A stretch of 63,055 nucleotides of DNA from Candidatus Omnitrophota bacterium (GTDB taxonomy: Bacteria; Omnitrophota; Gorgyraeia; B26-G9), in contig JAZDHG010000040.1 of the NCBI GenBank assembly GCA_043806135.1, positions 1-63,055 of the forward strand, given 5' to 3'. The translations under genes and the position numbers were made by a program. The notes under the pieces are model-generated. The model worked only from the letters and a program-made list of their open reading frames with translations. It was not told where the DNA came from and did no database searches. Below are positions 2,842-23,655 of this stretch, in pieces (position 1 is the first letter of the stretch; each line of letters opens with the position of its first letter).

Positions 2842-2870
2842 TTGACAATTTTTTTTGAAAATGATAATTT
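2842..2870 (+). promoter_or_regulatory. Sigma70-type promoter for the nfnAB leader
   Basis: TTGACA (2842-2847), 17 bp, TAATTT (2865-2870) with TGn extension. Confidence 0.65.
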
Positions 2871-2874
2871 CATT

Positions 2875-2954
2875 ATGGCAATACAAAGTTGTATTGCCAT
2901 TTGAAGATCAGAACAAAGATGTTCTCCTCATTGAGGAGGGGTCTTTGTTTTTTT
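2875..2954 (+). promoter_or_regulatory. ANTAR-responsive dual-hairpin antiterminator leader 1
   Basis: P1 atggcaatac-AAAGTT-gtattgccat; P2 agaac-AAAGAT-gttct; both hexaloops have A1/G4 and a C-G closing pair; P2 overlaps a terminator (aacaaaga/tctttgtt, ctcctc/gaggag, T-run). Confidence 0.85.
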
Positions 2955-2988
2955 ATGGACTTGCGACTTAAGATTGTGGGTGAAAGAA

Positions 2989-3825
2989 ATGAAAATTATA
3001 GCAAAAGAACATATTGCCAGGGATCTTACTAAGTTTGTTATTGAATCAAAGCTTATTGCCCAAAAGGCATTGCCGGGACAGTTTATCATCCTTATGGTTC
3101 GTAAGGAGGGGGAACGTATTCCGCTGACGATTGTAGATACCGATAAGAAGAATCAGACAATCACTATTATTTTTCAGGAAGTAGGGTATACTACGAAATT
3201 ATTAGGAAGATTGGAACCTGGGGATTCATTGTATTCTCTGGTAGGACCTCTAGGCAAAGCGACCCCGATTAAAAATTACGGCAAGGTTATAGTTGTGGGA
3301 GGAGGAGTAGGTATTGCTGAGCTTTTGCCGGTTGTGCATGCTTTTAAAGATGCCGGATGTACAATTACGTCTATTTTAGGCGGCCGCACAGCGGAACTGG
3401 TGATTTTGCAGGAACAGGTTAAAGAATATTCAGATGTTATATATATTACTACTGATGACGGATCCCTGGGGGAAAAGGGCCTGGTAATTGATCCATTAAA
3501 AAAGTTAATCGAAAAAGACCAAAATTACGGATTGATATTCTGTGTAGGTCCTCTGCCGATGATGAGGGCAGTGGCTGACCTAACCCGGCCGTTTAAGATT
3601 AAGACTTTAGTATGCCTTAATTCCATAATGATTGATGGTACGGGTATGTGTGGCGGATGCCGCGTTACAATCAATGGTGAAACTAAATTCACATGTGTTG
3701 ACGGACCTGACTTTGATGGACATGAGGTTGATTTCAATGAACTCATGACCAGACAGAAGAGATTCGCCTCGCACGAGAAGCACTCTATGTGCAAGCTTGA
3801 TGAGAAAATTAAAAAAGTAATATAA
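2989..3825 (+). CDS. nfnA: NfnA/SudB-type FAD/NAD-binding [2Fe-2S] subunit
   Basis: ERIPLTI, GGGVGIA and DGTGMCGGC...CVDGP motifs; directly upstream of a GltD-like partner. Confidence 0.85.
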   Translation: MKIIAKEHIARDLTKFVIESKLIAQKALPGQFIILMVRKEGERIPLTIVDTDKKNQTITIIFQEVGYTTKLLGRLEPGDSLYSLVGPLGKATPIKNYGKVIVVGGGVGIAELLPVVHAFKDAGCTITSILGGRTAELVILQEQVKEYSDVIYITTDDGSLGEKGLVIDPLKKLIEKDQNYGLIFCVGPLPMMRAVADLTRPFKIKTLVCLNSIMIDGTGMCGGCRVTINGETKFTCVDGPDFDGHEVDFNELMTRQKRFASHEKHSMCKLDEKIKKVI

Positions 3826-21321: not shown

Positions 21322-21341
21322 TAATGTAGCGGAGAATAGTT

Positions 21342-22940
21342 ATGACAAAGTTTATTTTTATAACCGGCGGGGTTGTTTCAAGTTTAGGTAAAGGAATTGC
21401 TTCTGCGGCTATAGGCAAGCTGCTTGAATCAAGAGGGTTGAAGGTAACGATCATTAAGTGCGACCCTTATATTAATGTTGATCCAGGCACGATGAACCCT
21501 TTTCAGCATGGTGAAGTTTATGTTACGGATGACGGCGCAGAGACAGACCTGGATCTCGGGCATTATGAGCGGTTCACCAATGCAAAACTTACGCGTGATA
21601 ATAATATTACAACGGGCAAGATCTATTATTCTGTTATCAATAAAGAAAGAAAAGGTGATTACCTGGGTAAAACGGTCCAGATAATACCGCATATTACAGA
21701 TGAAATAAAAAACAATATTAAGAAGGTTGCTTACGGCAAAAAGATCGATGTAGTGATCGTGGAGATCGGGGGTACGGTGGGAGATATTGAAAGCCTTCCG
21801 TTTCTTGAAGCAATACGGCAGTTAAAACAGGAGCTGGGAAAAGATTATGCTATTAATATCCATGTAACTTTAGTCCCTTATATAAAAGCAGCCGGTGAAA
21901 TAAAAACAAAACCTACACAGCACAGTGTAGGCACTTTAAGGGAGATCGGAATTATTCCGGATATAATTCTTTGCCGTACTGAGAAAAAAATCAGCCGGGA
22001 GGCAAAAGAAAAAATAGCTCTTTTCTGTAACGTGGATGCCGATGCGGTAATTCCGGCAATTGATGTAAAAAGTATTTATGAGGTTCCTCTTACGTTTCGC
22101 AAAGAAAAGCTGGACAGCCTGATAGTAAAGCTCCTAAAGCAGCCTTGCCGGGATAGCGATCTGGATGATTGGCAGAGCCTGGTGGTAGAAAGACAGAAAG
22201 CTCCTGTGAAAGAGGTGCAGATAGCTGTTGTCGGCAAATATATCGCTCTTCAGGATGCGTATAAATCTATTTACGAATCGCTTGTGCATGGGGCGATAGC
22301 GAATAATGTAAAACTAATCATTAAGAAAATTGATTCAGAGGATATTGAAAAGCATGGAGCGGAAAAATATCTTAAGAATGCTAAAGGTATTCTGATCCCG
22401 GGCGGCTTTGGCAATCGCGGGATCGAAGGAAAAATAAAAGCAGTTAAGTTTGCGCGCGAAAACAATATTCCTTATTTCGGCATCTGCTTAGGTATGCAGA
22501 TAGCGGTTATCGAATTTTCCCGCAATGTTTGTGCGATGAATAACGCAAATTCCACAGAGTTTGATAAAAAGTCAAAGTATCCGGTCATCAGCCTTTTAGA
22601 AGAGCAGCGCAAGATAAAGGAAAAAGGGGCGACTATGCGTCTTGGGGCTTATGATTGCAATCTTAAAAAAGGAACGCGCGCGTATAGTGCATATAAAAAA
22701 GAAAAAATTCAGGAACGCCATCGCCACCGTTTTGAGTTTAACAACCAATACCGGGAGCGTTTGGAAAAAAAAGGCATGGTTTTCTCTGGGGTAAATCCTC
22801 AGAAAAATCTGGTCGAGATCATAGAGATCAAAGACCACCCATGGTTTGTATCCTGTCAGTTTCATCCTGAATTCAAATCGAAACCGGACAACGGGCATCC
22901 TTTGTTCAAGGAATTTATAAAAGCTTCTCTAAACAGGTGA
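21342..22940 (+). CDS. pyrG: CTP synthase
   Basis: [37 protein letters not shown] and QFHPE motifs. Confidence 0.97.
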
Positions 22941-22944
22941 GGAC

Positions 22945-23655
22945 ATGAAAGAGAATTCGGCAAAATCTTATATTGATGCATTGAGTAAAATAAGCAAAGC
23001 TATTACCAGCGACCTTTATCTGGAAGACATGCTGAAGCTTATTGTTACTTTAACTGCAAACGTTATGGAAGCAAAGATCTGCTCTTTATGGCTTCTTGAT
23101 GAAAAAACGCAATTTTTAAAAATTAAAGCGACGCAGGCAATGAGCAGTGAATATGTGAAGGAAAGAAAAATAAAAGTCGGAGAGGGGATTGTCGGGCTTG
23201 TCGCAAAAAATAAAAAACCCACGGTTATACTGGATGTTTTAAAAGATAAAAGTTATAAAGAAAAAATGCTGGCTAAAAAAGAGAATTTGGTTTCAATGGT
23301 AAGCGTGCCGATGATGGTAAAAAACAGGGTTATCGGAGTTATTAACTGCTATACAACTCAAGTTTATCACTTCGGTAAAAATGATATTAATCTTTTGAGC
23401 ACTGTTGCGAATCAGGCTGCGGTTGCAATTGAGAACACAGAGCTTTTGGTGAAAACAAAAATTATACAGGAAGAACTGGAAACCCGTAAAAAGGTGGAAA
23501 GAGCAAAAGGGATCTTAATGAGTGAAAATAATTTTTCCGAGAGTGGTGCATACGAACTGCTTAGAAAATACAGTATGAGCAAACGCTTGCCTATGAAAGA
23601 AATAGCGGAAGCCATAATTCTTTCTTTTGAAATAAAAGAAGGAAAGGGTAGATAG
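22945..23655 (+). CDS. GAF-ANTAR RNA-binding antiterminator
   Basis: GAF domain (GEGIVG, SMVSVPM, ANQAAVAIEN) plus ANTAR domain (LETRKKVERAKGILM...AYELLRKYSM...MKEIAEAII). Confidence 0.9.
   Translation: MKENSAKSYIDALSKISKAITSDLYLEDMLKLIVTLTANVMEAKICSLWLLDEKTQFLKIKATQAMSSEYVKERKIKVGEGIVGLVAKNKKPTVILDVLKDKSYKEKMLAKKENLVSMVSVPMMVKNRVIGVINCYTTQVYHFGKNDINLLSTVANQAAVAIENTELLVKTKIIQEELETRKKVERAKGILMSENNFSESGAYELLRKYSMSKRLPMKEIAEAIILSFEIKEGKGR

Follow-up and report, generated by a model that had tools for sequence, protein, structure and literature searches.

Predicted ANTAR-type attenuators upstream of nfnAB and gdhA, and the GAF-ANTAR protein that probably operates them, in an Omnitrophota genome

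ANTAR antiterminators are common in genomes, and the few that have been studied (AmiR, NasR, EutV, Rv1626/PdtaR, NasT and GnfR) include no GAF-ANTAR protein, according to the available text of two reports (PMC3369931, PMC12591593). Here we describe two leaders with the architecture of ANTAR targets, together with the gene of a GAF-ANTAR protein, in a 63,055-nucleotide stretch of DNA (the window) from a Candidatus Omnitrophota bacterium (assembly GCA_043806135.1, contig JAZDHG010000040.1). The window is contig C40 of a draft metagenome-assembled genome (G000) of 2.24 Mb in 118 contigs, with 39.9% G+C and 90% completeness. The leaders precede nfnA (leader 1, 2842-2954) and gdhA (leader 2, 7315-7427), and each combines an extended -10 promoter, two hairpins with A1/G4 hexaloops (A in the first and G in the fourth loop position) and a terminator that overlaps the second hairpin. 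The whole is a predicted system of ANTAR attenuation that is well conserved; its GAF sensor is uncharacterised, and the phylum has not been cultured.

The eut leaders of the EutV/EutW system in Enterococcus faecalis are built in much the same way: as far as the available text goes (PMC3369931, PMC8934654), they also carry dual A1/G4 hexaloops, the second hairpin (P2) lies within an intrinsic terminator, and termination is the default, as predicted here. Over 58 residues, the ANTAR domain of the Omnitrophota protein can also be aligned with that of EutV, whose structure is solved. The two systems differ in sensor, targets and host, since EutV/EutW combine a phosphorylated receiver sensor with ethanolamine-use genes, whereas the present locus, in Omnitrophota, pairs a one-component GAF protein with nitrogen-assimilation and redox genes. 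NasR, with the nasF leader of Klebsiella oxytoca, and AmiR of Pseudomonas are likewise antiterminators of nitrogen-source genes, NasR being a one-component protein and AmiR being controlled by ligand, and they share with the present system the hexaloop rule and a long helix between the sensor and the ANTAR domain. However, NasR carries a NIT sensor for nitrate/nitrite and AmiR is held by AmiC, whereas the GAF domain here is of the EI-Ntr/NifA type. Their targets also serve an alternative nitrogen source, in contrast to the central assimilation genes gdhA, nfnAB and idh of this locus.

Regulons closer in content have been predicted in Desulfotomaculum and Pelobacter (Ramesh 2012) and reported for GnfK/GnfR in Geobacter (PMC2995071); they show the same motif and include P-II, amt and glutamine or glutamate synthase operons. 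In the available text of these reports, the regulators, where stated, are of the receiver-ANTAR type, unlike the GAF-ANTAR protein here, and nfnAB, gdhA, idh, carA and purF do not appear there as targets. Geobacter gdhA is subject to promoter control by GnfM, not to antitermination (PMC2995071). In Clostridium thermocellum (PMC9888227, PMC4676874), an NADP-dependent glutamate dehydrogenase lies beside NfnAB (Clo1313_1847-1849), as here, and an ANTAR regulator again occurs in a nitrogen gene cluster, but it is of the receiver type and sits beside the glutamine synthetase and glutamate synthase genes (GS-GOGAT); the available text of the two reports mentions no ANTAR leader for gdh or nfnAB.

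The preliminary description of this locus had regarded ANTAR control of NfnAB as an undescribed case. A literature search, judged by title, returned no publication on ANTAR control of NfnAB, and to that extent the view stands, but ANTAR control of nitrogen-assimilation genes, including "glutamate synthase genes", had already been predicted, as the available text shows (PMC3369931). Leaders of nfnB may even be among the sites of Ramesh 2012, because NfnB is often named glutamate synthase. Among the papers listed by a search for ANTAR or antitermination in Omnitrophota/Omnitrophica, none was relevant; for ANTAR and GAF proteins in connection with glutamate dehydrogenase, the Geobacter work alone was relevant. 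By term search, the main text of the main survey of the phylum makes no mention of nitrogen, ammonium or ANTAR (PMC10066038).

That the two leaders share one design, as first proposed, can be read directly from the forward strand, where promoters, hairpins, hexaloops and terminators are all present. Promoter 1 (2842-2870) consists of TTGACA at 2842-2847, a 17-nt spacer, TG at 2862-2863 and the -10 hexamer TAATTT at 2865-2870. It is followed by the first hairpin, P1 (2875-2900), with a 10-bp stem and the hexaloop AAAGTT, and by P2 (2910-2925), with a 5-bp stem and the hexaloop AAAGAT. The intrinsic terminator (2910-2954), a hairpin (2910-2951) whose U-run ends at 2954, is mutually exclusive with P2. 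In leader 2, promoter 2 (7315-7343) has TTGACA at 7315-7320, over the stop codon of idh, again a 17-nt spacer, and TGnTACTTT, with TACTTT at 7338-7343. Its P1 (7352-7367) and P2 (7382-7397) both have 5-bp stems, with the hexaloops AATGTA and AAAGGC, and the terminator (7387-7427), a hairpin (7387-7421) whose U-run ends at about 7427, overlaps the loop and the 3' arm of P2. All four loops have A1, G4 and a C-G closing pair, and the linker between P1 and P2 measures 9 nt in leader 1 and 14 nt in leader 2. The dual-hexaloop features listed by Ramesh 2012 that are found here comprise stems of at least 3 bp, hexaloops, a variable linker, A1/G4, the mutual exclusion of P2 and terminator, and an ANTAR gene in the same genome. 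The 13-nt P2 core AACAAAGRYGTTC, common to both leaders, occurs twice in the window, against 0.01 copies expected. Among relatives, G001 and G004 retain promoter 1 in the leader of nfnA, and G001, G002 and G004 retain promoter 2 in that of gdhA.

Folding of the leader sequences agrees with two alternative structures. At full length, both leaders adopt a fold that combines P1 with the terminator, leader 1 at -34.8 kcal/mol (z -6.1) and leader 2 at -24.2 kcal/mol (z -3.8). When leader 2 is shortened to before the 3' arm of the terminator, the fold becomes P1 plus P2; for leader 1, P2 is seen in the centroid structure only. In Rfam, no ANTAR-type family was matched at gathering thresholds, nor at E <= 10 over 2600-7600. 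A regular-expression scan for dual hexaloops followed by a T-run gave 71 matches in the genome and was too loose to use. A promoter/terminator scan listed the inner stem of the leader 1 terminator; its sites were no commoner than in shuffles (56 vs 48.7; 17 vs 17.1), and it is blind to terminators with loops of more than 8 nt, including those of leader 2 and gdhA.

Whether loops and terminators are conserved in orthologous leaders was one of the questions on which the preliminary description had staked its reading. The starting set comprised 55 regions lying upstream of nfnA or gdhA homologues in 40 relatives, out of which a script chose 17 leaders in 13 genomes, requiring a P2-like hairpin and then a complementary arm with a T-run; a second alignment holds 13 of the 17, the four without a recognisable P1 being excluded. 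Orthologous leaders from 12 related genomes retain both of the alternative structures and show compensatory changes, and the proposed architecture of ANTAR antiterminator targets is supported by this conservation and covariation. Across the 17 leaders, 88.5% of the cells of the dual hairpin are paired, compared with 30-53% when partners are slid, and 95.3% of those of the terminator, compared with 53-62%, although the percentages for P2 and the terminator are inflated because the script had required a P2-like hairpin and a complementary arm. The compensatory changes are unaffected by this selection, and double changes occur in 6 of 10 pairs of the dual hairpin and in 6 of 10 pairs of the terminator. 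P1 is equally unaffected; without any selection on it, 86.7% of its cells are paired and 3 of its 5 pairs show compensatory changes. In 45 distinct model matches, in an alignment fitted to the model, pairing reaches 94.2%, with compensatory changes in 7 of 10 pairs. In the loops, A1 and G4 of the P2 loop and G4 of the P1 loop are invariant in all 13 aligned leaders, and A1 of the P1 loop is kept in 11 of them.

The GAF-ANTAR gene (22945-23655, forward strand) starts 4 nt after pyrG and is the sole ANTAR gene in the genome. Its earlier identification is confirmed by the profile scores of the product (GAF_2, 74.6 bits; ANTAR, PF03861, 70.1 bits against a cut-off of 27.3). Besides the EutV domain (6WSH, 2e-11 over the 58 residues mentioned above), the ANTAR domain aligns with those of Rv1626 (3e-9), NasR (7e-6) and AmiR. 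An AlphaFold2 (AF2) model of the monomer, with a predicted local distance difference test (pLDDT) score of 85.3, comprises the GAF domain, a helix of 50 residues and a small bundle of helices, with helical segments at 145-195, 199-213 and 217-234. The supposition that the GAF domain senses a nitrogen or carbon metabolite is in keeping with fold and sequence, which both place it with the nitrogen-sensing EI-Ntr/NifA type: the top fold matches are the GAF domains of EI-Ntr (PtsP) in 3TRC and 3CI6, with a template modelling (TM) score of 0.88, and the top sequence matches are again EI-Ntr GAFs (E about 3e-15), with NifA further down the list. According to the available text of one report, EI-Ntr's GAF domain binds glutamine (PMC4848567). 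The closest public GAF-ANTAR loci are nearly all from Candidatus Omnitrophota, and the protein also occurs in records of Thermodesulfobacteriota, Atribacteria and Aerophobetes. The protein alignment covers 23 of 30 orthologue loci; two (L009, L020) contain an internal stop, two (L012, L025) fell under the coverage filter, and three (L003, L013, L015) were removed to thin close relatives.

The covariance-model search of the genome and its relatives, recommended in the preliminary description, was carried out with model R1, built from 13 leaders, and model R2, built from 48 matches; it located two sites in G000 and further sites in relatives. Across the 2.24 Mb of G000, only the two leaders fall below E = 0.9 with R1 and R2, scores that hold by construction because both leaders are in the seed alignment. 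One other match, on contig C73 (56194-56237, E 0.9-1.8), is without a terminator and looks like chance. A scan of 41 whole genomes with R1 gave 24 matches at E <= 0.01 in 13 genomes, 11 of the 24 lying outside the seed. Every one of them lies upstream, on the same strand, of gdhA (9), nfnA (5), amt (3), a glt-like gene (2), glnN (2), antar, that is, the GAF-ANTAR gene (2), or carA (1). Matches were obtained in 13 of 31 genomes with a GAF-ANTAR orthologue, compared with none of 10 genomes without one.

Wider samples extend the list of genes that follow the motif. In the window and 44 loci, 46 non-duplicate matches precede gdhA (11), nfnA (9), antar (6), glt-like genes (5), glnN (5), carA (4), amt (3), gltB (2) and carB (1), a count that is biased because the loci had been chosen around such genes. 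An even sample of 151 genomes in the class gave matches in 26, and 19 new class-wide loci have the motif before gdhA (5), glt-like (3), NuoE-like (3), glnA (2), glnN (1), purF (1) and nfnA (1) genes, the other three preceding genes for sigma-70-like, LuxR-like and PPDK_N-domain products. The genes that follow the motif in relatives make up a regulon for nitrogen assimilation, such as was predicted for ANTAR motifs in 2012 (PMC3369931).

We consider it likely that both leaders are ANTAR-type attenuators at which a GAF-ANTAR dimer antiterminates in response to nitrogen status, and the single GAF-ANTAR protein of the genome probably operates both. What the sequences show is the architecture, with its conservation and covariation, the co-occurrence with the regulator and the gene families; that the protein binds RNA, which way control runs, what the ligand is and what the enzymes do, we infer from these. 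Transcripts would begin at or just before P1. By default, once the 3' arm of the terminator has been made, the terminator would form at the cost of P2, and transcription would stop before nfnA or gdhA. In the activated state, the GAF-ANTAR dimer would bind the A1/G4 hexaloops, P1 first and then P2, and P2, held closed in this way, would block the terminator and let the genes be read. Leader 1 would drive nfnA-nfnB-orf172-(leuB relic)-idh. Leader 2 would drive gdhA alone and would also gate read-through from idh, as its terminator would end the nfnAB-idh transcript too. The most likely signal is nitrogen status, perceived through the GAF domain, with low glutamine and/or high 2-oxoglutarate turning RNA binding on; glutamine or 2-oxoglutarate sensing is the best guess because the nearest match of the domain is the EI-Ntr GAF, a glutamine binder. 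Under nitrogen demand, NfnAB (supplying NADPH), isocitrate dehydrogenase (IDH, supplying 2-oxoglutarate) and NADP-dependent glutamate dehydrogenase (fixing ammonium) would then rise together.

The joining of NADPH, 2-oxoglutarate and ammonium into one reaction, an idea of the preliminary description, is a reasonable inference, given that the linkage of nfnAB, idh, gdhA and antar is conserved across families. The order nfnA-nfnB-(leuB or orf172)-idh-gdhA-carA-carB-purF-DUF1846-pyrG-antar is kept in the family, and the core nfnAB-gdhA-antar is kept in other families. Among the best 80 named GAF-ANTAR loci, 16 have gdhA and 15 have nfnB no more than 10 kb away, and 24 have at least one of the two, always on the strand of antar. 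From 14 other loci, 20 neighbouring open reading frames include five glutamine synthetases, six proteins of glutamate-synthase type and one Amt.

Several observations speak against this account, in addition to the inflated pairing percentages and the model scores that hold by construction. No R1 match was found in 18 of the 31 orthologue-bearing genomes, the models being narrow. The minimum-energy fold of leader 1 pairs A1 with U6 of the P1 loop, which leaves a tetraloop. The preference of the GAF domain for EI-Ntr is modest, with E 3e-15 vs 3e-12 for a GAF domain that binds cyclic AMP (cAMP). Moreover, the direction of control is a guess, because there are bacteria in which limiting nitrogen represses gdhA and does not induce it (Geobacter, PMC2995071).

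Could the leaders be ordinary attenuators, or sites of another factor, whose likeness to ANTAR targets is a coincidence? The link between protein and RNA is drawn here from sequence, and the lack of an Rfam match is in keeping with such a view. We nevertheless hold it to be very improbable, since A1 and G4 are kept while the stems covary, the motif is confined to genomes with a GAF-ANTAR gene in the 41-genome scan, and it stands directly before that gene in 6 of the 46 matches. Given ANTAR attenuators, the GAF domain might still read a different signal, such as a cyclic nucleotide, a redox or NAD(P)H-linked cue or another metabolite, in which case the regulon would couple redox balance to glutamate synthesis and would not be a glutamine/2-oxoglutarate response. 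GAF domains bind many ligands, the cAMP-binding GAF 5W10 and the GAF domains of HD-GYP and phosphodiesterase (PDE) proteins are also strong matches in fold and sequence, and the targets include redox modules, both NfnAB and NuoEF-like ones. However, EI-Ntr and NifA-type GAFs remain the best matches by both measures, and the targets in relatives (amt, glnN, glnA, gltB) are the classic nitrogen-limitation set, so a signal of this other kind appears unlikely to us.

The function of the first operon bears on a further alternative, that the nfnA/nfnB pair serves glutamate synthesis and not bifurcating transhydrogenation, and that leader 1 controls a GOGAT-like step. The pair would then be a small glutamate synthase of the GltA type or an electron-input module for a Glu_synthase-like flavin mononucleotide (FMN) protein. 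The NCBIfam family matched by NfnB, TIGR01316, is indeed named gltA, "NADPH-dependent glutamate synthase"; G003, of the same genus, has an ANTAR leader and a glt-like gene after nfnAB, and in other families a glt-like protein is encoded in ANTAR-led operons with NuoE/F-like subunits. We judge this reading improbable nonetheless, as both subunits are near solved and assayed NfnAB/NfnI proteins (2e-173 and 3e-85) and G000 contains a weak Glu_synthase match only (24 bits). The pair of nfnAB and an NADP-dependent gdh in C. thermocellum is likewise treated as Nfn in the available text (PMC9888227).

The locus offers a compact and well-defined test system: a single regulator acts, as predicted, on two clean leaders, the family alignment is strong, and EI-Ntr suggests a ligand to test. 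It also provides a first view of gene regulation in the uncultured Omnitrophota, and the placing of NfnAB inside a nitrogen regulon supports the notion that NADPH supply and assimilation based on glutamate dehydrogenase are managed as one unit. The mechanism is as expected for ANTAR proteins, and the finding opens no long-standing question. A broader and more tentative idea, which we regard as possible but doubtful, is that GAF-ANTAR proteins may be the main nitrogen sensor of Omnitrophota and other anaerobic lineages, setting the entire assimilation network at the RNA level by direct sensing of glutamine or 2-oxoglutarate. If so, the network of G000 would run without P-II and without an ammonium transporter. 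NfnAB and, in other families, a NuoEF-like module with a Glu_synthase-like FMN protein would then be dedicated and co-regulated suppliers of reductant for the assimilation of ammonium. Neither P-II (PF00543) nor an ammonium transporter (PF00909) was found in the 90%-complete G000 by searches that matched 13 of 14 and 14 of 14 control genomes, respectively; the genome has one type III glutamine synthetase.

The gene calls of the preliminary description hold for the most part and are corrected at three places, the start of idh (probably 6092, not 6032), the start of nfnA (probably 2989) and the segment 5800-6063, which is a leuB relic. The genes from nfnA to antar lie on the forward strand. The small-subunit gene nfnA (2974-3825, likely start ATG 2989) scores 379.6 bits with NF004862 (cut-off 220), and its product matches 5JCA_S (2.6e-85) and 4YLF_A (9.9e-74) in the PDB. 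The gene of the GltD-like large subunit, nfnB (3890-5287), scores 576.5 bits with TIGR01316 (cut-off 471.75), with matches to 4YLF_B (2.1e-173) and 5JCA_L (8.8e-150). The two adjacent genes thus show full-length homology and close similarity to NfnAB from Thermotoga and NfnI from Pyrococcus, both of solved structure, and their products contain the Pfam domains DHODB_Fe-S_bind, NAD_binding_1, Fer4_20 and Pyr_redox_2. Next come orf172 (5281-5799), which encodes a Cys-rich product without a Pfam or NCBIfam match, and the 3' relic of leuB (5800-6063), 88 codons that lack a start codon and continue the frame of orf172 beyond its TAG. An orthologue of orf172, 69% identical, occupies the same place in G014, with no leuB, whereas G001 and G006 have a full-length leuB at the position of the relic (TIGR00169, about 514 bits) and G009 and G015 have neither gene. 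Because leuB and orf172 content differs in this way among relatives, the site between nfnB and idh has been remodelled repeatedly.

The last gene of this group, idh (6032-7318, likely start 6092), encodes a divergent protein with N- and C-terminal extensions that matches Iso_dh at 229 bits. Its best NCBIfam match, NF006673, reaches 250 bits against a cut-off of 509, and the product stays under the cut-off of all 16 families listed. The nearest solved relatives are the IDHs 6M3S and 6LTF (about 2e-53), and an S-x-N-V-A-x-R stretch aligns residue for residue with 6M3S. This stretch may mark isocitrate specificity, as in IDH rather than isopropylmalate dehydrogenase (IPMDH). As the score is below every curated IDH cut-off, the product is called a probable IDH only. 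Beyond leader 2, gdhA (7466-8857) is assigned to NADP-specific glutamate dehydrogenase by NF006929 (768 bits, cut-off 536).

Treating 2842-23655 as one regulon, as had been suggested, goes too far for this genome. gdhA has its own strong terminator (8906-8959), a 14-pair stem followed by a U-run, and the segment 8895-8962 folds at -24.0 kcal/mol (z -5.3). The genes that follow it, carA, carB, carB, purF, DUF1846, a purF-like gene and pyrG (9113-22940), and then antar itself, are without an ANTAR motif in G000 by both models. A long operon from gdhA to antar with autoregulation is rejected for G000 because of this terminator. The carA leader motif, which neither model found in G000, is present in G006, G015 and G033 and weakly so in G014.

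The description of the regulon as self-contained also fails at the level of the lineage, where the motif precedes amt, glnN, glnA, gltB, glt-like genes, carA, purF and antar, and in G000 itself, where a degenerate homologue of such leaders precedes glnN on another contig. Within its roughly 290 nt, that leader (contig C47; 670-970 of locus L110) carries an extended -10 promoter and, in succession, two terminators, each with an A..G.. hexaloop hairpin ahead of it. It is homologous to the canonical dual-hexaloop glnN leaders of G005, G006, G008 and G011. With a P2 that lacks the closing pair, about 10 bits with both R1 and R2, and E 0.17-1.8 in small searches, it is not counted as a third target.

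In some relatives, the motif lies directly upstream of the GAF-ANTAR gene, as at 6135-6374 of L200 (G011, contig C119), 2509-2553 of L207 (G028, contig C33) and 6413-6457 of L197 (G035, contig C106); in G011, it occurs there twice in tandem. Such a position, absent from G000, implies positive autoregulation in those relatives, and the motif before antar makes autoregulation likely in G011, G028, G035, L168 and L171.

Among the class-wide loci, two with the motif before a NuoE-like gene were extended, and in both this gene heads a nuoF-like / Fe-S / glt-like operon. At 231-4951 of L245 (G049, contig C40) and 184-4805 of L246 (G113, contig C13), both from other Omnitrophota families, an ANTAR leader heads four genes. 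The first three products are a NuoE-like 2Fe-2S protein, a NuoF-like FMN/4Fe-4S protein and an Fe-S protein like the N-terminal part of NuoG; the fourth, of about 530 aa, has a weak Glu_synthase match and falls in no NCBIfam family. The operon may encode an undescribed NADH-linked complex resembling glutamate synthase.

The block from carA to pyrG in the window encodes glutamine-using amidotransferases and is placed beside the gene of the GAF-ANTAR regulator. In 10348-16815 and 16815-21321, two full-length carB paralogues follow the single carA in tandem, and a canonical purF is accompanied by the divergent purF-like gene, whose 226 bits are below the TIGR01134 cut-off of 350. Between these two lies DUF1846 (UPF0371; 18191-19714), which scores 788 bits with NF010184, a family named "hypothetical protein". 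Many Omnitrophota loci contain it together with gdhA, carAB and the GAF-ANTAR gene, and the family, which is uncharacterised, has a link to glutamine and nitrogen metabolism. The GAF-ANTAR gene is followed by a PAS-HD(GYP-like) gene (24390-25409), whose position is kept in G005, G015 and several named loci and whose product may be a second signalling partner.

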